A stretch of 50,057 bases of DNA from assembly GCA_030611205.1 (NCBI GenBank), contig JAUWQF010000001.1, positions 1 through 50,057 on the forward strand, read 5' to 3'. Shown here piece by piece: positions 1 through 16,946 of the stretch (its first letter is position 1; every line of letters starts with the position of its first letter). The notes under the pieces are model-generated. The model saw only the letters and a program-made list of their open reading frames with translations, did not search any database and had not been told where the DNA came from. The translations under genes and the position numbers were made by a program. Source of the stretch: Methanothrix sp. (lineage in GTDB: Archaea > Halobacteriota > Methanosarcinia > Methanotrichales > Methanotrichaceae).

Positions 1-192
1 GAGCCCCCACCCTTCGCGCCTTCGCGGCTTCGCGTGAGAGCTGTTCCCCAATGATCTCATCGACGAGCCCCCACCCTTCGCGCCTTCGCGGCTTCGCGTG
101 AGAGCTGTTCCCCAATAATCTCATCCAGCAGCCCACTCCCCTCGCGGCTTCGCGTGCCCCCTACTTTCTTATTCACGCGAAGGCGCGAAGTC
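1..192. repeat. Tandem 64-bp direct repeat: units 1-64 and 65-128, a degenerate third unit at about 129-160, and an inverted partial copy at 173-190. Truncated by the window edge.
   Basis: Units 1-64 and 65-128 differ at 3 of 64 positions. The core cttcgcgccttcgcg recurs as its reverse complement cgcgaaggcgcgaag at 175-189. Confidence 0.85.
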
Positions 193-525
193 CTAATGTT
201 TGTTCACTACCCGTCTGATGCCTTCCTTGAAGGTCGCTGCACCAAAGTTGATAAGCAATCCGACAGGCAGGTTCAGGAGGCGCAAGTAGGTCACATGGAC
301 GAGGGCAAGCTTCTCCACGGATTTCAACTCGATCACCATGCAGTCGTCCACCCGCAGCCCGCGCTCTTCAAGCATACGTGCAAGGACAGCCTCATGGATC
401 CGGAAAAGTAAAGATTCGGGCTGCCTTGACGCCACAGGACTTGGGTCAGCGCCATTGCCTTCAGCATCTTCTCGACGGGCCGCCTTCATCCTCATGGCAT
501 CGAGCATCCTCGGGTCCCCCGACAC
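193..525 (-). pseudogene. GxxExxY-family (PD-(D/E)XK-like) protein, degenerate or internally deleted copy
   Basis: The C-terminal part (MVIELKSVEKL..HVTYLRLLNLPVGLLINFG) matches the conserved tail of GxxExxY proteins. The N-terminal GxxExxY region is unrecognisable, and a segment between RGL and VDDCMVIELK appears to be missing. Confidence 0.4.
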
Positions 526-570: not shown

Positions 571-1110
571 TTATCTCATTTGCGTCAGATAACGATGGAG
601 AAGACGCTCTTCTTCGGCCGGGGCGCCGTCCAGCAGCCACTCGACGGGCCGTTCATTTTCCTTGGCCGGGTTTACCCATACAATATTCCGCAACTCGCCA
701 ACTCCATCTGATACGGCTGCAAAAGGCACCCTCGCATTCTCATCAAGAGAGACGATACTCCTGTCGGTCGCCATCGCAGCATCGATGAGGTGGAGATCCT
801 TCAACATTTCATCGAGATCCCTCTCCTTGGAAGTTTTGTCTTCAATTTTGATGCGCAGAATATCATCCGATTTGAGACTTGGACGATATACTCTCCTTTG
901 CGAATACATGCTAACTCGCCACTTGCGCGTCCATGGGCTGGCGTGCCGATCCCATTCAGAGCCAATAGCCTTCGTCATGACCAGCATGTGGCGCGTATCG
1001 TCTTTCATGGTCGTTAGAAAGGTCCGGATAGGGCTAGGAGCCGTGATAGGACCCGTGTCGCAGGCAACACAGGCATCGATGACCAGGCTCTTCGATCTTT
1101 GTGATCTCAT
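571..1110 (-). CDS. PIN-like nuclease domain protein (hypothetical); downstream partner of the ATPase
   Basis: The acidic pattern resembles a PIN fold: SLVIDACVA (Asp after a hydrophobic strand), SEWD, and DLHLIDAAMATDRSIVSLDE. Its ATG (1108-1110) directly abuts the TAA of the upstream ATPase (1111-1113). Confidence 0.45.
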   Translation of the reverse strand: MRSQRSKSLVIDACVACDTGPITAPSPIRTFLTTMKDDTRHMLVMTKAIGSEWDRHASPWTRKWRVSMYSQRRVYRPSLKSDDILRIKIEDKTSKERDLDEMLKDLHLIDAAMATDRSIVSLDENARVPFAAVSDGVGELRNIVWVNPAKENERPVEWLLDGAPAEEERLLHRYLTQMR

Positions 1111-2511
1111 TTAGCCGGTCCCCAACCGTGATTCTACAGCATCGAGGTAGCGGCTCTGCATTTCGAGTTCCGTATCTGCAAAGTCTTCCGGCCAGTCTCC
1201 AAACGCGCCCGCCTCGTCCAAGTCCGCGCTGTTGATCTTTGTCGTGCCATCGTCCTGTAGTTCAAACCAGTGGAGCTTTACCATCTCGGGAGACAGCTTA
1301 CCCTCTGCAACCAACGTCTGGACCCCCAGAAGCAGTAATTCGCTGTGCGTCTCCACGACAACCCGGATACCGCGATTTGCGGCATCTGCAAGAACCTGCG
1401 CCATCGCCGTCTGCGCACGGGGGTGGAGATGGATCTCCGGTTGCTCTATGTAAACCAGCTGACCAGCCTCCGCTGCCAGGAGGGCAACCAGTACCGGTAA
1501 ACTCTGTGATACGCCGAACCCTACATCGGCGATGTTCACCAGGTCACGGGCCTTTTTTCTAGCAGGCAAGCGGCCGACACGAAGTTCGACACGAGTATCA
1601 TCGACCTGTTTCGTATGAACTTTCCAGGTTAGTCCCAGCATCTCAAGCAAGCGTCCCAACTCCTGGAGACGAGGATCTTCGCTGACTTGCCAGTGATTGA
1701 TTATACTGGCGACATAATTTTCGAATGTTCCGGAGAATTTGGTACCGATTGCCGTCGTTTTATATGTTCGCTCTGGGTTGCCCCTCAGCGCCGGTACGTG
1801 AATTAGCCTCCTGATGTGCGACTCGAAAGGTTCATTAAAGTGGTGGATGGTGCTGAATATCAAGTCTGTTTTATCTTTTTCGATTGTAAATAGCCCGGCG
1901 TCGAGAAAACACCGCATTCGTCTTACTCTCGCTTCAAGTCTCTCATAAGTGCGCATTGTTTTGAATGCGTCCACATAAGATTCATTCATATAAGATTTAA
2001 GATGGGGGACTGCCGAGATTATCTCCTCATGCGTCATCTCCGGTCGTAGTGATACAGAGTGATATTCGTATTCGTATCTCGCTTCGACAATTTCGATACC
2101 CTTCTTCTTCTCTGTCCTAAATATTTCTCTAATTGAACTGCCGCCTTTTTCGCCCTTGACATCGAGCCCGATCTCGAACTCTTCGACATTCTTCTGATTG
2201 CATTTTGACAAAAACTGTTCGACTGATGTGAACCGGACGTGAGGCCCATCGATCAATAATGCACCTGGATCGTATGTAGCTTCCAGCGTCTGTTTCATCA
2301 TCAATAACGGCTGCATGATGCTCGATTTGCCCGAGCTGTTCGCTCCCGCTAGTATCGTCAGCGGGCGAACCTCGATAGAGCTGCCCTCGGAAAGTGATTT
2401 GAAACCGCGTACATATAGGCTCGAGATGCCGCCTGATGATAGATTTTTATTATTTTTCCTCTCGGATTTTGGGGACAAAGCCATTTTTACTACCTCACGG
2501 ATGGTGCTCAA
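1111..2511 (-). CDS. ABC/SMC-like AAA ATPase (AAA_21/AAA_15 type with a DUF3696-like C-terminal tail)
   Basis: Walker A LAGANSSGKSS; Walker B/D-loop QLVYIEQPEIHLHP; H-loop VVETHSE. The C-terminal tail is LHWFELQDDGTTKINSADLDEAGAFGDWPEDF. Confidence 0.7.
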   Translation of the reverse strand: MSTIREVVKMALSPKSERKNNKNLSSGGISSLYVRGFKSLSEGSSIEVRPLTILAGANSSGKSSIMQPLLMMKQTLEATYDPGALLIDGPHVRFTSVEQFLSKCNQKNVEEFEIGLDVKGEKGGSSIREIFRTEKKKGIEIVEARYEYEYHSVSLRPEMTHEEIISAVPHLKSYMNESYVDAFKTMRTYERLEARVRRMRCFLDAGLFTIEKDKTDLIFSTIHHFNEPFESHIRRLIHVPALRGNPERTYKTTAIGTKFSGTFENYVASIINHWQVSEDPRLQELGRLLEMLGLTWKVHTKQVDDTRVELRVGRLPARKKARDLVNIADVGFGVSQSLPVLVALLAAEAGQLVYIEQPEIHLHPRAQTAMAQVLADAANRGIRVVVETHSELLLLGVQTLVAEGKLSPEMVKLHWFELQDDGTTKINSADLDEAGAFGDWPEDFADTELEMQSRYLDAVESRLGTG

Positions 2512-2682: not shown

Positions 2683-3990
2683 TTACACGATCACTTCTCT
2701 ATATTTCTCCAGCAGCGCCATCACCTGCTTTATATCTCTCCCCTGGACCCTGGCCTCTTCCAGAAAGCTCTGGTACATGGCATCGTTGACCAACCTAGGC
2801 ACTAACTTGCAGTTCTGGCCGTGGAGCATCAAATTGAAGCACCTGGCCTCGGCCTCGGATAGCTTCAGAGCCTTATACTCGCCCTTGTGCTCCCGGTAGA
2901 GGAGGTTCTCTTCGCGGGGATAATCGAGAGCAAGCCGGGCCAGGGGCGTCCCCGGTATGGGCTCGGCGACGCTGGAGAAGACGTCGTCCAGCATGGCATC
3001 CTCCATGAACTCCAGGGTCTCATCATAGTCCTCCTCGGTCTCGCCGGGATAGGCCACGATGAAGGACCCGCCCACCTTGACGCCACAGGACCTGGCCAGC
3101 TCCACCGCTTCCAGGTTCTTCTCGACGGTCACCCCCTTCCTCATGGCGTTGAGCATCGTCTGGCTGCCCGATTCGATGCCGAAGAAGACCCATCCGATGG
3201 TATAGTCCCGGATCGCCTCCAAAATCTCCTGGTCCACGAAATCTACCCTCATGTCGGGGACGGAGAGGTTCCTCGGCCCCAGGATCTCCGACATCGCCCG
3301 GACCAGCTCGATGAAGGCACCCTTGTTGACGTCTTTGCCGTAGCCGAACAAGGACCCGGTACCGCCGCTGACCGCTACCTTCTGAACCCCGGCCCGCTTC
3401 AGCTCCCGGACCTCCGCCAGGATGTTCTCCAGGGACCTGGACCGGATGGTGCGACCGAAGAACCGGGGAACCTGGCAGAAGGTGCACGCCCCAAGACAAC
3501 CCCTGTGGGTCTCTATGTAGACGTTGGCCCCGCGGACGTTCTGAGAGCTCAGATCCTCGGGTATCAGGGGGAGGGGATGGTCGAGGTTGCCCACCGGCCG
3601 GGACTTGGTCTTGACGATCTCGTCGCCTTCTACGAAGGCCACCCCCGCCAGGTCGCCGGAAGGACCATCCTCTACCAGGCTGGCAACCACATCTTCGCCC
3701 TCGCCCACCACCACCGCGTCGACGTCCAGCTCGCCTAGGACGATCTCCGGTGTGAACCCCACGGGACCGCCCACGTAGACCGTGGGGAGGGTCTTCACAA
3801 AATCTCGGATCCGGGGGTCGAGGAGCTGGCCGGTGGAGAACAGGCTGAGGAGGGTGACCTCTCCGTCGGACCGGAGCCGGTGGGTGACGGTGACCGTATG
3901 CCCCCTCTCCTTCAGAACGCCTCCCAGGACCAGGGAGCCATAGGTGTAAGTCCCGGGCGATACTATGCTGACTCTCACCCTCATCCTCAC
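2683..3990 (-). CDS. B12-binding-domain radical SAM protein (class B radical SAM methyltransferase-like)
   Basis: N-terminal Rossmann-like B12-type domain, followed by the radical SAM cluster motif CLGACTFCQVP. Its start overlaps the stop of the upstream Mmp10-like gene by 4 nt. Confidence 0.75.
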   Translation of the reverse strand: MRMRVRVSIVSPGTYTYGSLVLGGVLKERGHTVTVTHRLRSDGEVTLLSLFSTGQLLDPRIRDFVKTLPTVYVGGPVGFTPEIVLGELDVDAVVVGEGEDVVASLVEDGPSGDLAGVAFVEGDEIVKTKSRPVGNLDHPLPLIPEDLSSQNVRGANVYIETHRGCLGACTFCQVPRFFGRTIRSRSLENILAEVRELKRAGVQKVAVSGGTGSLFGYGKDVNKGAFIELVRAMSEILGPRNLSVPDMRVDFVDQEILEAIRDYTIGWVFFGIESGSQTMLNAMRKGVTVEKNLEAVELARSCGVKVGGSFIVAYPGETEEDYDETLEFMEDAMLDDVFSSVAEPIPGTPLARLALDYPREENLLYREHKGEYKALKLSEAEARCFNLMLHGQNCKLVPRLVNDAMYQSFLEEARVQGRDIKQVMALLEKYREVIV

Positions 3991-5204
3991 ACGCCCAGCG
4001 CGTTGATCTCTTCGATCAGATCTGTGAAGCCCTCTACCTCCACCTCGATCACCTCACGGGGCGTCATGCTGATGCTCATCTCCCCGTCGACGGTGAGTCG
4101 GTCGGGACCTCTCCTGATCAACCTGTCCACACCATCCCTGGTGAGAACCTGACGGATATCACTATCGCATGCGAGGGTCCTTCCCGGGAGGATCACCGTC
4201 TCTTTCACCTCGCCGAGGTCCAGCTCTTTCAGGTCCTCGATGGTTATGAGACAACCGATATCTTGCCCGACCGAGACCACGTTCACCTTATCTCCCAGGT
4301 CCCGGAAGATGGAAGATAAGAGAGGCTCGGCGACGGAACCGGTGATCAAAGTGGCGCTCTTTCTCAGGGGTGGGAGTCGGGCCAGCTCGTCCCGGCGGCT
4401 GGCCAGGGCAAAGGGCGCGCCGGTCTCAGGGTCCCAGAGCGGCGTACCGGTGACCCTGAAGCTGTACCTTTCATTGATCTCAGTCACGATCTGCTTGAAC
4501 TCCTCCACTGTGTGAGGAACCACCCCAGGCAGTATGGGCGCGTTTCCCAGGACCAGCCCTTGTTCTCTGGCGTTGGCAAACCTCATCAGTATGAGCCTCT
4601 TGATCCCCATCTCTTCCAGGTCCGAGCAGGTATTCTCCAGCTCCGGACCGTCGTTGGCACCGGGAACGAGTATCACGGCCGCGTAGACGTCGCAGCAGTC
4701 CGAGAAACGTCTCAGATTGGTCAGGGCCGCCTCGGGATGTTTGTCCCTCATGTACCTCTGGCGGAGGTCGGGTCTAGTGGAAAAGACGGTAAAGGATACC
4801 TCTTTCACCCCCGCCTCGATGAGAGCATCCGCCTCGTCACCCTTGGTGAAACCCTTGCCGCTGGTGTACCCCAGATGAACGGGCACGTCGCTCTGGCCCA
4901 CCAGCCGGGTCAGCTCCAAGAGATGAGGGTAACAGCTCAGGTCCCCCCCACCACTGATCGTCACCTTCTCTGGTATGGAGTGAAAAGCCGTCTGGGCCAC
5001 CTCCATGACCACCATCTCCAAGGGCTTGAATCCGGAGTAACCCTCTCTGATCGCCCGCGTACAGTAGTCGCAACCCTTCTGGAAGGGGAGACAATGTTTG
5101 CACCCCAGAGGCGCGACGTCCTTGACACCCTTGAAGTAACAGTAAGTGCAAAACCCTTTGCAGTCCAGGCCGGGCCGGCCTCCAACGTCCGCCAGAATCT
5201 CCAT
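3987..5204 (-). CDS. mmp10: Methanogenesis marker protein 10 (Mmp10)-like radical SAM enzyme (McrA arginine C-methyltransferase family)
   Basis: The N-terminus MEILADVGGRPGLDCKGFCTYCYFKGV carries a CX3CX2C motif at the extreme N-terminus, as I recall for the Mmp10 family. The size is about 400 aa and the gene lies near mcr. Confidence 0.65.
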   Translation of the reverse strand: MEILADVGGRPGLDCKGFCTYCYFKGVKDVAPLGCKHCLPFQKGCDYCTRAIREGYSGFKPLEMVVMEVAQTAFHSIPEKVTISGGGDLSCYPHLLELTRLVGQSDVPVHLGYTSGKGFTKGDEADALIEAGVKEVSFTVFSTRPDLRQRYMRDKHPEAALTNLRRFSDCCDVYAAVILVPGANDGPELENTCSDLEEMGIKRLILMRFANAREQGLVLGNAPILPGVVPHTVEEFKQIVTEINERYSFRVTGTPLWDPETGAPFALASRRDELARLPPLRKSATLITGSVAEPLLSSIFRDLGDKVNVVSVGQDIGCLITIEDLKELDLGEVKETVILPGRTLACDSDIRQVLTRDGVDRLIRRGPDRLTVDGEMSISMTPREVIEVEVEGFTDLIEEINALGV

Positions 5205-6703: not shown

Positions 6704-9700
6704 TTGCACATTAAGGAGATCGAGCTCAGGAACTTCAAGTCTTTCGGTAGGAAGGTCTCCATCCCCCTGGAAAACGACTTCATAGCCATCACCGGTCCCA
6801 ACGGAAGCGGCAAGTCGAATATCATAGACGCTCTGCTCTTCGCCTTATGTCTATCCAGCTCTCGCGCTATGCGTGCGGAGAGGCTCCCCGATCTGATATA
6901 CAAGGGCGATAACGGCAAGAACCCCGACTTCGCCCAGGTCACCGTCAAGTTCGACAACTCCTGCCGTACCATGCCCGTGGAGGAGGACGTCGTAGAGATA
7001 TCCAGAAAGGTGAAGCTCACCAAAGATCGATATCATAGTGTTTATTCTTTTAACGGCGACACCTGCAGCCTGAGCGAACTTCATGATATTCTCTCCCGAT
7101 CTGGGATTACCCCCGAAGGCTACAACGTCGTTATGCAGGGCGACGTTACCAGGATAATCGAGATGAACCCCACGGAGAGGCGAAAGATCATAGATGAGAT
7201 CGCCGGGGTGGCCGATTTTGATGAGAAGAAGCGGAAGGCTCTGGGCGAGCTGGAGGTCGTCCGAGAAAGGATAGACCGGCTGGACGTGATCCTGGATGAG
7301 GTATCGGCCCAGCGGCTGAAGCTGGGCGAGGAGAGGGACCGGGCCATCACCTACCAGGCCCATCGGGACGAGAAACGGCATCAAGAAGCCTTCCTTCTCC
7401 TGGCCAAGCTCAGGGAAGCGGAGGCGGAGCAGGCTTCTCTGGAGAAGGAGACCGAGGACCTGTTGGCCCAGGACGAGCTCTTTCGGGAAAGATACCGGGC
7501 CAAGAAAGATGCGCTGGCCTCTCTGGAAGATGAGCTGAAGAGGCTCAGCTCCGATATCGCCCATAAAGGCGAAGACGAACAGCTGGAGGTCAAGAGGAAG
7601 ATCGAAGAGCTGAAGGGGGAGATCGAGCGGGAGGAGAGCCGCATCGAGATGGCCGATAGGGAGATCTCGGAGACGGAGGTGGAGAGGAGGAGGATCTACC
7701 TGGAGATGGCCCGTCTCAGCGAAGAGGCCGAGGCCCTGACCACGAAGATCAGAGACGCCGGCATAAGAGAGGCCAGCCTCGTGGCCGAGCTGGAGGAGGA
7801 GAGTGAGAGACTGGAGGGGGTCCGGTCCGAGATCGCCGAGGCCGATGTGGAGTACGCCCAGCTCAGAGACGAGATGGCCGTGGTCAAGAGGAAGAGGGAA
7901 GATGTCAAGACCGAGATGGCCGACCTGATGCGGGACCGGGACCGGTACCTGGACGCGGCCAGGCGGAGGTCGAGCGATCAGGAAGATATCTGCAACCAGA
8001 TCTCCGAGTACGAAGAGACGATCCGCAGTTCAGAGAGAGAGGCGGAGCGGATTAAAAGAGAGATCGACCAGCTCGAAGAGAGGGGGCGAGAGCTGGAACG
8101 AAACGGCGATGACCTGGGGTTCGCCATGATCGGGGTCAGACGGGAGCTGGCGGAAGCCGACCAGAGGTTGCAGGAACTCCAGGTGGAGAAGGCCAAGGCA
8201 GAGGCCAGCCTCCGGTCTGCACGGGAGGGACCTGGGTTCAGCAAAGGGGTCGAGGTGGTCAGGACGGCCTTGCAGAAGGGGCAGCTCGAAGGCCTGCACG
8301 GGACCATAGCCGAGCTGGGACGGGCAGATAATAGCTACGCCACCGCGTTGGAGGTGGCGGCGGGAGCCAGACTTCAGAGCATCGTAGCTCAGACCGATGA
8401 GGACGCATCGCAGGCCATAGCGTATCTGAAGAGGGTGAGAGGAGGACGGGTTACCTTTCTGCCCCTGAACAAGATGAAATGCGGACGGGTGCCGCCTGAT
8501 CCGCCCAGCCTTCCGGGGGTCGTAGACTACGCCCTGAACCTGGTCCAGTTCGATGGAGAGTTCTTGCCCGCCTTCTGGCACGTCTTCCGGGATACTTTGG
8601 TGGTTGAAGATATGACCTCTGCCCGGCAGCTGATGGGGAGATACCGGATGGTGACCCTGGAGGGCGACCTGGTGGAGAAGAGCGGGGCCATGACGGGAGG
8701 CCACTACCGGTCGAGGGTCAGCTTCGCCGCCGACGAGGGGAAGAGGCTGGCCGAGATATCGGGTCGGCTGGCTCTGGCAGAGGAGGAGAGAGAGGGGATC
8801 TTAGACAGGCTGGACCGCGTGGAGGGTGAGATCTCCAGGTTGAAGAGAGACGAGGATGAGCTGAACAGGGAGATGTCCAAGAAGTCCTTCCGCCTGGAGG
8901 AGACAAAAGACCAGACGGTGAGGCTGGATAGGACGATCCTGGAGCAGAAGGCCCGGCTGGAGGATATGGAACAGGAAGCCGCTGGGGTAAGAGAACAACT
9001 GGATTTTTTGGAGACGGTGCTGGAAAAGGGCAAAAATACCCTGGCCGGGCTTGACTCGAAGATCGAGACCCTGGAGAAGGGTCTCGAGGGGTCTGAGATA
9101 CCTGCGTTGACCTCTCGAGCAGAGGAGGCAGAGGCCAGGATCAGAGATCTGGAGCGGCGGAAGGGTGTGATCGATGCAGAGGTCACCAAAGAGAAGCTGA
9201 AAGAGGAGATCGGCTCCCAGAGAATAGATGAGCTGGCCGCCAGAAAAGAGATCCTGGAAGATAAGAAGAAGGATGCCCTGGATCGGAAGAGAATCGCCGG
9301 AGAACGGAGGGTCGAGAATAAGAAGGTTATGGAGGCGAAGAGAGAGAGGGAAAAAGAGATTGAGCAGGAGCTGCACGACCTGAAAGGGGTACGGGGAAAG
9401 CTCCTGGAGGATGTTATGGCCCGTCAGAGAGAGGTCGACTCTCTCCAGATGGAGTCGGAACGGATCAAGGCCAGGATGACCGCGACATCAATTGCAGGCG
9501 ATGAGGCGAAGGCCAGGGCGGAGGAGATCAGGGCGGAGATCGTGGGCCGTGGTGTGGACGTCACCGCAGAACCGCCCAAGGTTCAGACCATAATGAGGAA
9601 GATCAAGGCTCTGGAGAGGTCGATGCTGGAGCTGGAGCCGGTGAACATGCTGGCCATCGAGGAGTATGGGCAGGTCAGCGATCGGTGCGACTTCCTCCTG

Positions 9701-10222
9701 GACCGGAGAGATACCCTTCAGAGGGAGAGAGAGGACATACTCGGCAAGCTCGAAAGGTATGACTTGATGAAGAAAGAGGCCTTCATGACATCTTTCAACG
9801 CCATCAACGAGAACTTCGAAGGTATCTTCAACCAGCTATCGGGCGGTGAGGGGGGGCTGATCCTTGAGGACGAAGAAGACCCCCTCGGCGGAGGTATGAC
9901 TATTCGGGCCAGACCGGCTCGCAAGTCCTTCCACCGCCTGGAGGCCATGTCCGGCGGGGAGAAGAGCCTGACGGCACTCGCTTTTATATTCGCCATACAG
10001 AAGTTCAGGCCCGCACCATTCTACGCCCTGGACGAGATCGACATGTTCCTGGACGGGGCCAACGTGGAGAAGGTAGCCAAGCTGATCAGCGACGTCTCCG
10101 AGGTCGCACAGTTCATGGTGGTCTCTCTCAGGAAGCCCATGATCCAGGAGGCTAGGTACATATTGGGCGTGACGATGCAGGAGGATAACATCTCCAGCGT
10201 GACGGGGCTGTGCCTGAGCTGA
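6704..10222 (+). CDS. smc: Chromosome segregation protein SMC
   Basis: 1172 aa. N-terminal Walker A ITGPNGSGKSN, long coiled coils, a hinge, the C-terminal signature LSGGEKSLTALAFIFA, and Walker B FYALDEIDMFLD. TTG start. Confidence 0.95.
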   Translation: MHIKEIELRNFKSFGRKVSIPLENDFIAITGPNGSGKSNIIDALLFALCLSSSRAMRAERLPDLIYKGDNGKNPDFAQVTVKFDNSCRTMPVEEDVVEISRKVKLTKDRYHSVYSFNGDTCSLSELHDILSRSGITPEGYNVVMQGDVTRIIEMNPTERRKIIDEIAGVADFDEKKRKALGELEVVRERIDRLDVILDEVSAQRLKLGEERDRAITYQAHRDEKRHQEAFLLLAKLREAEAEQASLEKETEDLLAQDELFRERYRAKKDALASLEDELKRLSSDIAHKGEDEQLEVKRKIEELKGEIEREESRIEMADREISETEVERRRIYLEMARLSEEAEALTTKIRDAGIREASLVAELEEESERLEGVRSEIAEADVEYAQLRDEMAVVKRKREDVKTEMADLMRDRDRYLDAARRRSSDQEDICNQISEYEETIRSSEREAERIKREIDQLEERGRELERNGDDLGFAMIGVRRELAEADQRLQELQVEKAKAEASLRSAREGPGFSKGVEVVRTALQKGQLEGLHGTIAELGRADNSYATALEVAAGARLQSIVAQTDEDASQAIAYLKRVRGGRVTFLPLNKMKCGRVPPDPPSLPGVVDYALNLVQFDGEFLPAFWHVFRDTLVVEDMTSARQLMGRYRMVTLEGDLVEKSGAMTGGHYRSRVSFAADEGKRLAEISGRLALAEEEREGILDRLDRVEGEISRLKRDEDELNREMSKKSFRLEETKDQTVRLDRTILEQKARLEDMEQEAAGVREQLDFLETVLEKGKNTLAGLDSKIETLEKGLEGSEIPALTSRAEEAEARIRDLERRKGVIDAEVTKEKLKEEIGSQRIDELAARKEILEDKKKDALDRKRIAGERRVENKKVMEAKREREKEIEQELHDLKGVRGKLLEDVMARQREVDSLQMESERIKARMTATSIAGDEAKARAEEIRAEIVGRGVDVTAEPPKVQTIMRKIKALERSMLELEPVNMLAIEEYGQVSDRCDFLLDRRDTLQREREDILGKLERYDLMKKEAFMTSFNAINENFEGIFNQLSGGEGGLILEDEEDPLGGGMTIRARPARKSFHRLEAMSGGEKSLTALAFIFAIQKFRPAPFYALDEIDMFLDGANVEKVAKLISDVSEVAQFMVVSLRKPMIQEARYILGVTMQEDNISSVTGLCLS

Positions 10223-10234
10223 AGGTGGTTTCTT

Positions 10235-10951
10235 ATGGTAGACGAAGGTTCTGAGCAGGATCCTGTGGAGGTTCTTCTGGATCTGGCCAAGAGTGGCGAG
10301 ATCGATGCCTGGGATATCGACCTATCGAAGGTCACGGAAAAGTTCCTGGAGCACATAGACACTCTGAAGAGCAATGACCTCCGGATCCCTGCCAGGACGC
10401 TCCTCTACGCCAGCATCCTCCTCCGCATGAAGTCGGATTTTATGGTGGAGGATGATGAGGGGGACGACGACCTGCTGGATGAATATGAGGAACCTCCAGG
10501 ATGGTTTTACAGGAAGGAGACGCTCCCCAAGCCCCCCATAAGGAGAAGGTCCAGGCGGCCGGTGACCCTGGTAGAGCTGATATCAGAGCTGAAGAACGCG
10601 GAAAGCGTTGCGAAGCGGAGAGAGGTCCGGCGGGAAAGCAGGCCCGAAGAACCTGTGGAAGCGGATATCGACAAGGCTCATGAGGAAGGCATCGAGGAGA
10701 GGATCAAGTCTCTGAAGGCGGTGATATACCAGAAGCTGGAGCGTGAGGAGAGGGTGGCCTTCACGGAGATCGGCGGCGACGTGCTCGACTACCTATCCGT
10801 CCTCTTCATGGCCAACCGGAGGGAGATCTGGCTCGAGCAGGACCGGATATTTGGCGAGCTCTACTTGAGAAGATACCCCAGTGAAGTGAGCTCAATCTAT
10901 TCGGGCGAAGGCGTCATAGAGGAGGAAGGGTTAGTTGCCGGAACTTGCTGA
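10235..10951 (+). CDS. scpA: Segregation and condensation protein A (kleisin)
   Basis: Lies immediately after smc. The N-terminus LLDLAKSGEIDAWDIDLSKVTEKFLEHI is typical of ScpA. Confidence 0.85.
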   Translation: MVDEGSEQDPVEVLLDLAKSGEIDAWDIDLSKVTEKFLEHIDTLKSNDLRIPARTLLYASILLRMKSDFMVEDDEGDDDLLDEYEEPPGWFYRKETLPKPPIRRRSRRPVTLVELISELKNAESVAKRREVRRESRPEEPVEADIDKAHEEGIEERIKSLKAVIYQKLEREERVAFTEIGGDVLDYLSVLFMANRREIWLEQDRIFGELYLRRYPSEVSSIYSGEGVIEEEGLVAGTC

Positions 10952-12598: not shown

Positions 12599-12639
12599 AA
12601 AAAAAAAGTAAAAAAATGTGTGTAGGCTCTCGCCTACAC
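12599..12639 (-). terminator. Candidate mcr operon terminator: stem-loop across the mcrA stop codon, then T7 and T9 runs
   Basis: An 8-bp stem spans 12620-12627/12632-12639 with loop tctc. On the minus strand it is followed by TTTTTTT-AC-TTTTTTTTT (plus-strand A-runs at 12610-12616 and 12599-12607). Confidence 0.55.
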
Positions 12640-14322
12640 TGCCGGCATTACCAGGCCTCTCTCGCCTGCTGCGCGGAACTCTCTGGCACCGCCCATGCCG
12701 TATCCCTTGCGGATGTCTTCCCATGTGAAGAGCAGCGCGGGGTTGGCGAAGGCTACCTTGATCAGCGGGTTGAGACAGTAGGCGTCTCCGCGGCCCGCGT
12801 GAGCTGCGCTGGATATGCCAGCGTACTCGCCCTGGTGACCGACGTTCATGGCGTAGTTCGGATAGTTGGGTCCTCTGATCTCCAGTGGGTTGCCCTCGTC
12901 GCCCTGGTAGCTGTAGACGTTGGTGGGACCGCACTGGTCCTGGAGGTCGTATCCGAAGAAGCCCATCCGGCCCCAGCCTTCCTTGTGGATCAGGTGGCTG
13001 AGATACCAGCCTGCAAGAGCTGCCTGGCTGTTCCCTGTGAGACAACCGCAGGTGACACCGCAGGAAGCTGCCATGATACCGGACCTCTGGGATCCACCGA
13101 AGTGGTCCTCCAGCAGGGTCGGGTAGGCCTCATACTGTTCCATGTCGTAGAGGGTGGTCTCGGTGGTCAGGTCCTTGATAACTTCCAGGGTAGCCGGAGC
13201 CTCTCCCCATCCTCCGTACTTGTCTACGCCGTAGTCGCAGCCATAGTAGGAGAAGTCGTCAAGCACATCGTTGGTGTAGGCGGCGGTCGCGTACTGGGTG
13301 AACCCAACACCACCGGACATGTAGCTGCCGAGCCAGATCTGATCGTAGAGCATGACTCCTGCGGCCACAACGTTCAGTGATATCTGTGGCGGGTCCCAGG
13401 GTTTGACCCTCTGGGTCTGGACCATGTCGGCCAGGAAGCCGAAGCTGACTCCACCGGGCTCGTTGGGTCCTCTGGCCCTCCTGGCGGGCAACATCTCGCC
13501 CATCTGGATGACCGCGGCGTGCTTCGCGGCGTAGGCCAGGTCGGCCACCGCGGCCTCACCGGCGCACATGCGGTAGGCGTCGATGAATGTCATGGAGAGC
13601 TGCATGGCGCTCCACCTGGAAGTCGTACCACCGTCACAGGTCCTGGAGACTATGGTGGGGATGTGGACAGCCTGCCAGGAAGTCTTGCCCATGGCGGCCT
13701 TGATCTCTTCGGCCTGGTCGGCGGGGAATAGCTTGTTGATGTCGATCAGGTACTGATCATCGATCTCGTCTGCCAGGTCGTCGTCACCGGTGAACATCCT
13801 GACGTTACAGTCGTCCACCAGTCCGGGGTGGGTCTCGACCATGTGCTCCTGGACCACAGCAGCGCCGGGCATGGCATGGTTCAGGATCTCCAGGTAGTTG
13901 TTGATCGTCTCAGGAGTGACCTCTTTTCCCAGCCTCTTTTCCAGCACCTCGTGGGCCATGTCAAGACCGACGAGTACGGTCCTTCTGATATCGTCCCACA
14001 TCTGCTGCATGGCAGGGTTGTTGACGAAGTGGAGGTCGTCGCCCTCGACTATGTACTCTGTGGTGGAGAGCTTGTAGGGGACGATCTGCCTCTGCCCCAT
14101 CGGGATACCACCAGCGTGTAGCATCGGGTTGTACATGGAGATGCCACGCTTGCCCTCCAGCTTCTTGGAAGCCGCCATGAACTCCTTCTTACGGTCGCTC
14201 TGAAGGACGCCCAGCTCCTTGAAGGGTGCATAATCGGTTTTCTTGCCCGTAAGGTCGAAGTCTTTTCCAAACTTCTTGTTCAGGGCCCTTACGAATAGCT
14301 TTTTAGTATGAATCTTTCCCAT
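12634..14322 (-). CDS. mcrA: Methyl-coenzyme M reductase alpha subunit
   Basis: 562 aa with hallmark segments [29 protein letters not shown] and [11 protein letters not shown]. Confidence 0.97.
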
Positions 14323-14337
14323 TTATCTCACCACCGT

Positions 14338-15105
14338 TTACTCTGGTCTGAAGCCCCATCTGCTCCTGCGCTCCCACATGTGGTGCAGGGCGATCAGTCC
14401 CTCATCGAGCTTTCTGTCGCCGATGGATCCTCCGAAGGCCACGTTGTCGTACCTGAAGATGGTGGTCCTCTTCGCTGCTTCGTCTTCGCTCATGGGTTTC
14501 CCGGCGTTGACCTTCTGGTCGATGGGGACACCTACCTGGTCCTTGTTGTAGTAGACGTTTCCGTCGTCTCCAACCTCACACCTGGCCAGCATGTCGAACA
14601 TCAGGCCGTTCTCCTCGAGCCTCAGTGAGTGGCCGTGCACGGTACAGCCCCTCATCGAAGCGAGGGCCGGACAGTACATCTCGCTGTCCATTATGGTCTT
14701 GGTGTAAGCGTCTATGTCTCTCTCTCTGGCCTCGATGATCTGTCGGCCCGAGAGGGTTCCTGGGTCGACACCCCTGCAGTTGATGGCTGCCCAGTAGGAT
14801 CGCCAATAGGGGACCGCGGGGGCGTTGTACATGGAGTCTGTGAACTGAGAGTACCTGATCCGGTCTCCTGCGGCCGCACCAGGGGTTGGCTCTACTAGCT
14901 GCCTTATGGGGCAGTCCGGCTCACCCATCTCTGCCAGTGGTGGGTGGGTGCTGGGATAGTCTGCACCAGGAGCCCTGTGACCCATGACGGCTACGATATC
15001 CATATCGGATATGTCTCGAAGCTTCTCCACGTCACCAGACATGTGCTTCCGCCTGTTAACGCCGGCAGACGTGGTGCCTGGATAATATTGTGGTGTGTAT
15101 ACCAT
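14338..15105 (-). CDS. mcrG: Methyl-coenzyme M reductase gamma subunit
   Basis: 255 aa. It begins MVYTPQYYPGTT and sits directly upstream of mcrA. Confidence 0.93.
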   Translation of the reverse strand: MVYTPQYYPGTTSAGVNRRKHMSGDVEKLRDISDMDIVAVMGHRAPGADYPSTHPPLAEMGEPDCPIRQLVEPTPGAAAGDRIRYSQFTDSMYNAPAVPYWRSYWAAINCRGVDPGTLSGRQIIEARERDIDAYTKTIMDSEMYCPALASMRGCTVHGHSLRLEENGLMFDMLARCEVGDDGNVYYNKDQVGVPIDQKVNAGKPMSEDEAAKRTTIFRYDNVAFGGSIGDRKLDEGLIALHHMWERRSRWGFRPE

Positions 15106-15135
15106 ATCTTACCATCTCCTTCTGAAAATTACATG

Positions 15136-15627
15136 TCACACTCTTTCATCAGACAGTATGGCCAGATCTCTCTCCGCCTTGGCCTTCGGATCAACCAGTC
15201 CCAGGATACGCTTGTCTTTGATATCGTCCCCGTACTTCGCATAATCGGAGATCGTTGGTTTGGTGTGGAATAGCGTTCCTTTTTTGAGTTCGAAGGGGAA
15301 GGGCAGCGTTCGCTCACATGCCGCCTTCACGCCCTCAAGATATTCCTCGTTCTCCAGCTCGAGCCAGATCCGTCCCACCTTGACCCTCAGCTCCAGGGCC
15401 TGGTCCCCCACCTCGAGGAGAAGGTCTTTGTTCTCCTCGATGGGAAGACCCCTTCCGGGACCGTAAGGGATTACTTTCGATAGGCTGGGCCCTTGGACCA
15501 TGATCCTGGTCACGCCGCCTTCTTTGTATATCTCATTGAGAACCCGCTGGGCGGTTTCCGGCCTCAGCAGCCTCCGGGGGAATATCTCTATCTGGACCGG
15601 TTCCGTGTCTGATTCATTAGCGACCAT
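15136..15627 (-). CDS. mcrD: Methyl-coenzyme M reductase operon protein D
   Basis: 163 aa. The IEIFPRRLLRPETAQRVLNEIY and VKVGRIWLELE patterns and the size fit McrD rather than the ~200-aa McrC. It lies between mcrB and mcrG. Confidence 0.8.
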   Translation of the reverse strand: MVANESDTEPVQIEIFPRRLLRPETAQRVLNEIYKEGGVTRIMVQGPSLSKVIPYGPGRGLPIEENKDLLLEVGDQALELRVKVGRIWLELENEEYLEGVKAACERTLPFPFELKKGTLFHTKPTISDYAKYGDDIKDKRILGLVDPKAKAERDLAILSDERV

Positions 15628-15641
15628 GCATTCAACCAGTT

Positions 15642-16946
15642 TTACACCGCCTCCGCAACAGAGACGATGGGCTCACTGAACTCCTTTATCCCGCCGTAGA
15701 TGGTGCCAACCAGTCCAGAGGTCATCTCTGGTGAGAACATCTGGGTGCCTGCATCAAGACACATTGCCGCAGAAACACAGGGTATGGCGAACCCTCTGGA
15801 GTGCCTGGTCACGATGTGGTTGCCGTTGAATACACCAGGTCCGCCGCCACCGTAGATGGAGTGGCTGAAGAAGGAGAACCCGACCGCGGTTCCCATGACC
15901 TTACCCCAGTCGCAACCGGGCAGGGCGGTCTCTTTCTCGATCAGGTCGTTGAAGTAGAGCAGCGTTGAGGAGACTGCCTGGCCACCTCTCAGAGCACCAC
16001 AGTTGACCATGGTCGCGGCCAGGGTCCCTGCTGCACAGTAGGCGTTCCACAGGGGGATGTCCTCTGCCTCGTACATTATGAACCCGGAGGGAAGAGTCTC
16101 GCCTGCCTTTATTACGCCGTCATCGATGGCCCTTTCGACCGTGGACTGCACGACTGTTCCGATGGTACCGGTCTTGCCGTTGGTCTTGACCATGTCATAG
16201 ACCATGTTGTTGGCGTTCAGGCCCTGGTATGCCAGGCCCAGAAGCTGGTACCTCTCGAAGATCCCGATGGCGTTGCCCATCTCGAAGTTCCCGATCTGCT
16301 CGAAGATCGAAGAGAGTGCTGCGGCGTTCATGGCGTTCTTCTTGGTGATCACGGCGATGTGGTTGGCCATGATGTTCCTCAAGGCGAAGCCGAGACCCTC
16401 ATCGTTCTGGGGGATGTTGAGAACAGAAGCTATGTTCCCGCCAGACATGGGGACCGTCTGCGGGTACTGGCCCCAGACCGAGGCGTGGACCATGGGTGCC
16501 TCGAGGTAGGTAACACCGAACTGCTGAACGAGCGCCTCTGTGGCGGCCGCTGCCGTCGCGGTCATTCCCACAACGAACTCTGCAGCGACGTCGACCCTGG
16601 CGGTGGGGATCTGGACCAAGAGCTGCTTTCCGCCGCCCATGACTTCCACGTTGGTGTCGTCGCCCTCGTCTACTTGGATGAGCTCTTTGATCTTTCCGGC
16701 GATGGCGTCGGCGTTGGCCACGACGTCATAGTCGAGTTCTCTGCCCTTGATCTGCCTGCCAGCACCGCCGACCTTGCCGGTCTTAAGGGCGTTCTCTATT
16801 CCTGCCAGGTTGACCGCAACGGTTCGCTTGGTCAGGGCAATTAGTTTTTTCATCGCTGCGTTCTTGAGGGGGCTGATCGCGTTCAGATCAACGTCACTCT
16901 TTAGAAGAACGCCGCGGTCACTGTATAGGTCTATCTTGTCAGACAC
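15642..16946 (-). CDS. mcrB: Methyl-coenzyme M reductase beta subunit
   Basis: 434 aa. It begins [12 protein letters not shown] and is the first gene of the operon. Confidence 0.93.

Follow-up and report, generated by a model that had tools for sequence, protein, structure and literature searches.

The DNA stretch analyzed here, hereafter called the window, comprises 50,057 nucleotides of Methanothrix sp. (contig JAUWQF010000001.1 of assembly GCA_030611205.1, positions 1 to 50,057). Near its left end lie two adjoining genes on the minus strand, the first encoding an ATP-binding cassette (ABC)-type ATPase and the second a small protein with a predicted PIN-like fold. Their junction reads GGC TAA ATG with a spacer of zero. 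Since no nucleotide separates the stop codon of the ATPase gene from the start codon of the PIN gene, the sequence implies that the two genes would form one operon and be translationally coupled. A preliminary description of the locus had pointed to such a pair, consisting of an ATPase reading frame of 466 amino acids with the motifs GANSSGKSS, QPEIHLHP and ETHSE, followed at TAAATG and without a gap by a PIN-like partner. The reading frame, its motifs and the zero spacer are all found in the sequence.

The open reading frame (ORF) called for the ATPase runs from 1111 to 2511 on the minus strand, and gives the 466 amino acids when begun at TTG 2511. Judged from the sequence, the true start is almost certainly ATG 2484 rather than TTG 2511, shortening the protein to 457 amino acids. 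This start is preferred because a Shine-Dalgarno-like GAGGT is placed 8 nt 5′ of the ATG, and because the region around TTG 2511 is not present in a close relative (locus L001), in whose alignment with the window the similarity starts just 5′ of the GAGGT. The features of the locus are collected in Table 1.

Table 1. Features of the ATPase–PIN locus and of the surrounding window. Nucleotide positions are those of the window; residue positions in the ATPase follow the 466-aa numbering, and those in the PIN-like protein its 179-aa sequence.
Feature	Position	Strand	Remarks
ABC-type ATPase, DUF3696 / NsnB / HEC-03 clade	1111–2484	minus	457 aa from ATG 2484
Stop/start junction TAAATG	1108–1113	minus	ATPase stop abuts PIN start
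Single-domain PIN-like protein	571–1110	minus	179 aa; presumed nuclease effector
AT-rich upstream spacer	2485–2682	minus	contains GAGGT (2492–2496) and TATA-like boxes
TATA-like box in spacer, TTTATATA	2635–2642	minus
TATA-like box in spacer, TTATATAA	2584–2591	minus
Walker A, GANSSGKSS	ATPase 56–64
Q-loop position, LRGNPER	ATPase 242–248		Arg replaces Gln
Signature, DVGFGVSQ	ATPase 329–336		GFG replaces SGG
Walker B, VYIEQPEIHLHP	ATPase 353–364		E-Q replaces D-E (E-Q-P-E vs D-E-P-E)
QPEIHLHP	ATPase 357–364
Switch, ETHS	ATPase 387–390		ETHSE at 387–391
C-terminal helical tail, GDWPEDFAD...YLDA	ATPase 438–457
LVIDAC motif	PIN 9–14
Acidic-rich segment, DLHLIDAAMATDRSIVSLDE	PIN 105–124
Partial copy of radical-SAM gene	424–567	minus	144 nt, directly past the PIN stop
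Chimeric ORF	193–525	minus	PDDEXK_3 and radical-SAM debris
64-nt tandem repeat	1–190		extends beyond the left edge of the window
SMC and ScpA genes	6704–10951		SMC 1172 aa
Methyl-coenzyme M reductase cluster	12634–16946		alpha, gamma and beta subunits

In a Pfam scan the ATPase matches AAA_15 (E = 1.2e-24) and AAA_21 (E = 8.8e-23). Its match to DUF3696 lies below threshold (E = 0.0032, 18.1 bits, cutoff 22), which makes the earlier wording of a 'DUF3696-like' tail a fair one. Among the PADLOC models the best match is to NsnB (2.8e-60), followed by the HEC-03 ATPase (2.2e-43) and PDC-M55A (4.7e-42); weaker matches are obtained to AriA (6.4e-29) and GajA (about 1e-11). Several of the nucleotide-binding motifs depart from the standard ABC forms, with arginine at the Q-loop position, GFG in the signature and E-Q-P-E in Walker B. 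In an alignment of 78 homologues the motifs are conserved, including these three together with Walker A, the ETHS switch and the C-terminal tail.

The partner is harder to place by sequence. It has no direct match in Pfam, NCBIfam, PADLOC or PHROGs, and a word-indexed homologue search with the 179-aa protein returned six proteins. An exhaustive HMMER search with an alignment of those relatives gave 2125 clusters at 50% identity with E <= 1e-3, and 371 with E <= 1e-30. Among the 150 best clusters of the family, lengths of 170–190 aa predominate. At NCBI the PIN-family members are named 'hypothetical protein' and their ATPases 'AAA family ATPase'. The Pfam family PIN_3 is reached by 6 of 132 family members, the best at 3.1e-6 (28.4 bits, with the cutoff at 27) and spanning the whole model, and PIN_12 is also matched by few.

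The structure predicted by AlphaFold2 from the 132-sequence alignment has a mean predicted local distance difference test score (pLDDT) of 96.2 and a predicted template modelling score (pTM) of 0.91. This is the model used throughout; prediction from an alignment of six sequences gave a pLDDT of 42 only. The strands run over residues 8–11, 42–44, 74–75, 118–120 and 144–146 with helices between them, so that the predicted model has the three-layer alpha/beta/alpha architecture of the PIN fold with about five parallel strands. On comparison with the Protein Data Bank (PDB) using Foldseek, 12 of the 15 best matches are PIN-like, headed by HARP/PRORP RNase P, VapC, AF0591, Nob1 and Utp24. A Foldseek search of viral structures yielded only a single weak PIN match, and searching the PDB sequences with a profile brought up no PIN protein, the top matches being unrelated and non-significant.

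Five acidic positions are conserved in 88–100% of the 132 family members. D105 is invariant, D12 and E52 are each present in 130 and D116 in 126, while D123 is found in 116 and replaced by glutamate in 10 more. W53, P148 and W158 are further invariants of the family. In the model D12 is placed past strand 1, E52 within the helix that succeeds strand 2, D105 at the start of a helix, and D116 and D123 on either side of strand 4. Relative to the predicted strands these placements match those of the catalytic residues of PIN enzymes, a correspondence of position along the chain by which the residues may form a metal site. The presumed stand-alone PIN-like nuclease appears, on the evidence of the model and of the conserved residues, to be catalytically competent. 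Predicted fold, family profile and conserved acidic residues together bear out the PIN-like partner that had been proposed. Two additional helices (about residues 83–104) are inserted between strand 3 and the D105 helix. A helical insert is likewise present in the best-matching HARP enzymes, a likeness that we treat as a lead only.

How widespread is the pairing? The ATPase gene precedes the PIN gene in all four kinds of close relative, and also in a 37%-identical homologue (P0006). Seen from the PIN side, using a locus search built on a 19-sequence subset alignment, an ATPase homologue of 42–57% identity is encoded directly upstream on the same strand in every one of the 80 loci, which come from GTDB species genomes. 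The stop–start distances in these genomes are mostly between −4 and +2 nt, and in L005 and L006 the distance is 0 nt, as in the window. Seen from the ATPase side, a window-type PIN gene comes next in 58 of 59 metagenome loci, counting ATPases of at least 36% identity with at least 450 nt of downstream DNA. The pairing is far above chance and near-obligate in both directions, and the proposal that the two genes are conserved as a unit is thus upheld. There is no conserved third gene, the 441 neighbours falling into 362 clusters. The 80 loci range over Cyanobacteria, Latescibacterota, Acidobacteriota, Chloroflexota, Planctomycetota, Spirochaetia, Myxococcota, Bacillota, Proteobacteria and others, together with two metagenome-assembled genomes (MAGs) of Methanotrichaceae. 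In two loci (L054 and L061) the ATPase ORFs are long, at 851 and 920 aa. A fusion was considered for them and rejected, since over-extension of the ORF in DNA of high G+C content presumably accounts for the length.

The preliminary description knew of no named system that joins such an ATPase to a PIN effector, and in this it was mistaken. HEC-03 (Hma-embedded candidate 03; Payne et al., bioRxiv 10.1101/2024.01.29.577857), which is contained in PADLOC-DB, consists of a DUF3696-type ABC ATPase and an overlapping PIN gene. In its source, Pseudomonas cichorii, an ATPase annotated as 'DUF3696 domain-containing protein' is followed by a PIN protein of 157 aa; in Escherichia coli the system lowers phage plaquing, both genes are needed, and induction is toxic (bioRxiv 10.1101/2024.01.29.577857). 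The PIN gene of HEC-03 overlaps its ATPase gene by 14 nt. Thus the two systems share a two-gene operon in which a DUF3696-type ATPase comes first and a small PIN gene overlaps or abuts it. The ATPases are 27% identical across their full length (BLASTP against WP_025259138, E = 3e-25), and the PADLOC model of the HEC-03 ATPase covers residues 31–450 of the window protein. Both contain the motifs NSSGKSS, LR..P, DVGFGVSQ, EQPEIHLHP and E(S/T)HSE. In PADLOC-DB 2.0.0 the model matching the ATPase is labelled HEC-03B, and HEC-03A is seemingly the PIN model; the naming in the preprint is reversed, with HEC-03A denoting the ATPase.

The PIN proteins are also related. Comparison of the window PIN family with 55 homologues of the HEC-03 PIN protein using hhalign gave a probability of 95.9% (E = 5.6e-9), over 91 N-terminal columns only, within which both families conform to the pattern vVIDtNVAiAAnG...C..FL...E[WY]..H.S. 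The C-terminal halves were left unaligned by hhalign, though a comparable D...A...D...D stretch can be discerned by eye, reading KD.HLIEAA..TD..V.SLD in the window family and DKSDRKFLAVA...NALDTD in its HEC-03 counterpart. There are differences besides the low ATPase identity and the limited extent of the PIN alignment. The window-type PIN protein is about 20 residues longer and has the additional helical pair, and in metagenomes the two types of PIN protein partner separate ATPase branches. HEC-03 is embedded in Hma systems of Pseudomonas, whereas the window family stands alone, in environmental bacteria and a methanogen. We are highly confident, on sequence comparison, that the window pair represents a sister family of HEC-03, with the same architecture and homologous parts, that lies outside the current HEC-03 PIN model.

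Beyond the window family, ATPases of about 29% identity have a HEC-03-type PIN gene downstream in five of eight loci. Since the type of PIN protein changes with the branch of the ATPase, it would seem that ATPase and PIN subfamilies have diversified together. In two more (L162 and L163), with ATPases about 28–29% identical to that of the window, the small proteins encoded downstream are detected by neither PIN profile, and PIN-like motifs (IDT/LDT ... EY ... D.SDW.FV.VA) can be seen in them by eye. On such inspection by eye, the DUF3696-type ATPase clade may hold further subfamilies of PIN partner.

A second named system bears on the claim of novelty. Menshen has an ATPase of the same clade in association with a PIN-like domain (PMC12065111). 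Its ATPase, NsnB, has a DUF3696-type tail, arginine at the Q-loop, GxG for SGG and an altered Walker B, and in AlphaFold3 models the PIN-like N-terminal domain of NsnC is docked between two NsnB DUF3696 tails (PMC12065111). Menshen requires NsnA, the PIN-like domains of NsnC are fused to other toxins, and residues of the D-E-D-D type are reported to be absent from all the major NsnC PIN-like families (PMC12065111). All three of the altered NsnB motifs recur in the window ATPase, for which NsnB is the best PADLOC match, and the ATPase partner has a PIN-like fold in both. Might the window pair then be a degraded Menshen, stripped of NsnA and of the effector half of NsnC? The NsnB score and the PIN-like start of NsnC that docks on NsnB would fit such an origin, as would the weak match of a single PIN-family member (n = 1) to the PADLOC model of NsnC (0.0028). 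Yet no gene for an NsnA sensor, which in Menshen is encoded upstream of the ATPase and has ParB-DUF262 and ParBDB domains, adjoins the window pair, whose upstream gene is of the radical-SAM type, and of the 155 Pfam families found in 148 flanking proteins of the 80 loci the 25 most frequent (those listed) do not include DUF262. In about 140 loci two genes are the norm rather than a chance product of decay. Moreover the partner is a complete single domain of 179 aa that lacks a C-terminal effector and retains the acidic residues of D-E-D-D type. A degraded Menshen is therefore contradicted already, and is very improbable indeed. Membership of Menshen (NsnABC) as such is ruled out, there being no NsnA next to the window pair and the partner not being an inactive PIN domain fused to a toxin.

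The frame in which the pair had been placed from the outset, that of a sensor ATPase with a nuclease as in Septu, PARIS and Gabija, is the right one. In PARIS (AriA/AriB), Septu (PtuA/PtuB) and Gabija (GajA/GajB) an ABC ATPase of AAA_15/AAA_21 type likewise controls a paired nuclease. Their effectors are Toprim (AriB, GajA) or HNH (PtuB) enzymes, in contrast to the PIN-like effector of the window, and their ATPases belong to other branches that lack the DUF3696-type tail. The 179-aa partner matches no PADLOC model of PARIS, Septu or Gabija.

The pair stands apart from its surroundings in composition. The G+C content is 45% in the 5′ half of the ATPase gene and 41% in the upstream spacer, against 59–62% in the neighbouring genes and mcrA, which agrees with the AT-richness of the ATPase gene reported earlier. 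The G+C content at third codon positions (GC3) is 0.56–0.57 in the pair and 0.70–0.83 in the neighbours. In L001 a 174-nt part of the spacer (about 2508–2681) is missing, and the ATPase ATG is found about 25 nt past the stop codon of a radical-SAM gene. From its sequence, the AT-rich spacer could possibly provide the pair with a promoter of its own, perhaps as an inserted, promoter-bearing segment.

Debris lies on the other side. Upstream of the pair, where the preliminary description placed MCR-maturation genes, are two radical-SAM genes. The segment directly past the PIN stop copies, at 78% identity, an internal stretch (3075–3216) of the neighbouring radical-SAM gene, reading AVRDDTIGGVFFGLVSGDPRMLDAMRMK where that gene reads AIRDYTIGWVFFGIESGSQTMLNAMRKG. 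The copy, which is also present in L001, L002 and L005, is by its sequence evidently a truncated remnant of a radical-SAM paralogue. The chimeric ORF beyond it draws its N-terminal part from this remnant, and its C-terminal part matches PDDEXK_3 (a GxxExxY-type nuclease; 6.4e-10) over the last third only (profile positions 66–117 of 117). With the 64-nt repeats at the left end of the window, these pieces substantiate the statement that repeats and a gene remnant bound the pair on one flank.

Close relatives, at about 90% nucleotide identity, have the pair at the same position. In another Methanotrichaceae MAG (L010) the ATPase–PIN pair lies about 6 kb from homologous radical-SAM genes and in an orientation inverted with respect to the window; the radical-SAM homologues (L010 21–2274 and window 2939–5194) are 68% identical in nucleotide sequence. 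The arrangement in L010 hints that the region is a recurrent spot of insertion or rearrangement. A crude pairwise estimate between the window and L001 puts the ratio of nonsynonymous to synonymous substitution rates (dN/dS) at 0.44 in the ATPase gene and 0.56 in the PIN gene. In one related population (L002, L003 and L004; about 1143–1675) the PIN gene is frameshifted near codons 35–40, splitting D12 from the remainder while the ATPase frame runs on to the edge of the contig; the three may share one sample, and sequencing error is possible for this frameshift. The window ATPase is equally similar to archaeal and to bacterial ATPases. Taken together, the GC3 values, the flanking debris, the missing spacer in L001, the inverted placement in L010, the dN/dS, the frameshift and the equal similarity to archaeal and bacterial proteins indicate that the pair is probably subject to horizontal transfer and turnover.

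We favour the reading that the window carries an intact cassette of the HEC-03 kind, which would confer immunity against viruses or mobile elements in the manner of an ATPase that guards a nuclease, and we give this a probability of about 0.65. The label of defence is attached on account of homology to HEC-03, not of defence-island context. A number of observations weigh against it. For this family, defence is deduced from a relative with only 27% identity in the ATPase. The PADLOC model of the HEC-03 PIN protein misses the window PIN protein at E <= 1, and one of the 132 family members matches it, at 0.0047. The Foldseek scores of the PIN model are marginal (best E = 2.5e-3, template modelling scores 0.45–0.51). 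The E-Q form of Walker B suggests that ATP may be bound and hydrolyzed slowly or not at all. No match was found on 72,556 plasmids or in 50,697 phage genomes, and the pair is present in only two IMG/VR contigs. Lastly, the neighbours in the window are radical-SAM genes, a Na/Ca exchanger, SMC/ScpA and mcr genes, and the flanking genes of the 80 loci are mostly of housekeeping type (AhpC/redoxin, PhyH, epimerases, YqeY), with other defence-type ATPases making up 2 of 148 flanking proteins in a census that is coarse, being confined to immediate neighbours and to the 25 commonest Pfam families. Of the grounds for refutation named in the preliminary description, co-occurrence mainly with housekeeping neighbourhoods was partly borne out by this limited test, and a lack of co-conservation was not.

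The scarcity of a defence-island signal, and the scattered and variable genomic positions, would also suit a selfish module of toxin–antitoxin-like or addiction type. Here a VapC-like toxin would merely be neutralized by the ATPase, and the pair would be maintained by post-segregational killing or drift, having no antiviral role. The PIN fold and conserved acidic residues of the effector are shared with VapBC, the Foldseek matches include VapC structures, and the two genes form a tight operon. HEC-03 is toxic on induction, and one population has a frameshifted PIN gene. Against this, there is no DNA-binding antitoxin of VapB type. In its place upstream is a 457-aa ABC ATPase with conserved nucleotide-binding motifs, quite unlike a small labile antitoxin, and the size of this protein and the ATPase-first order are foreign to type II VapBC. 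Most PIN sequences of the window family moreover fall outside the Pfam PIN models. The homologous HEC-03 pair protects against phages and needs both genes to do so, and plasmids, a common site of addiction modules, are where the family was not found. We consider an addiction module improbable.

The same flanking genes raise a further alternative, in which an ATP-dependent regulator and a PIN ribonuclease act in housekeeping or stress-related processing or quality control of RNA, with no part in conflict with mobile elements. The housekeeping character of most flanks, the operon-like closeness of the ATPase start to the radical-SAM stop in L001 and the presence of tRNA-processing HARP enzymes among the best fold matches are all in keeping with this. 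However, the 362 clusters among 441 neighbours leave no conserved neighbourhood, and the patchy distribution over unrelated phyla and two domains at similar identity speaks for horizontal transfer. The atypical codon composition, the high dN/dS and the decay of the gene in a close relative are likewise hard to reconcile with a housekeeping role, and both proteins are homologous to those of a validated defence system. On balance a housekeeping role is quite unlikely.

How might a defence cassette of the HEC-03 kind operate? The ATPase would form an oligomer, in which the C-terminal DUF3696-like helices could hold the PIN protein inactive. A putative cue arising from infection, itself a matter of conjecture, would then shift the binding or turnover of ATP, or the conformation of the ATPase, so that the PIN nuclease is freed or switched on. 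Cleavage of RNA, with tRNA or rRNA the likeliest targets, would halt translation and with it production of the virus. This clamp-and-release scheme is drawn from the AlphaFold3 models of NsnB–NsnC and from the PARIS and Septu structures to which PMC12065111 refers, and is proposed with less confidence than the defence role itself; the RNA target is suggested by the activities of PIN, VapC and HARP enzymes. We also entertain, as a tentative idea with the odds against it, that a large unmodelled branch of ATPase–PIN immune systems (at least about 2100 clusters) preserves an ancestral docking pair with an active PIN protein, from which the inactive adaptor of Menshen would be derived, and that the HARP-like helical pair directs the nuclease to tRNA.

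As HEC-03 means that this kind of system has already been described, the main value of the family is practical. Pfam, NCBIfam and PADLOC 2.0.0 all overlook this family, which is widespread and sister to a defence system with experimental support, and profiles built for the family would sharpen censuses of defence systems, above all in environmental bacteria and archaea. The family ties HEC-03 to Menshen through their common pairing of ATPase tail and PIN domain, and the two-protein pair offers a simple model for the control of effectors by ATPases of the DUF3696 clade. The window may in addition provide an archaeal case, among few such cassettes from methanogens, whose antiviral systems beyond CRISPR and restriction have received little study.

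Some minor features of the window complete the description. A scan with Rfam revealed no RNA families. The 64-nt tandem repeat at the left end, which occurs nowhere else in the window, comprises two copies that are 95% identical and a partial third; its internal sub-repeats read CTTCGCG(G/C)CTTCGCG, and an inverted arm occupies 173–190. Further into the window are an ordinary pair of SMC and ScpA genes and the cluster encoding methyl-coenzyme M reductase, and from the presence of mcrA, mcrB and mcrG the window is assigned to the chromosome of a methanogen.

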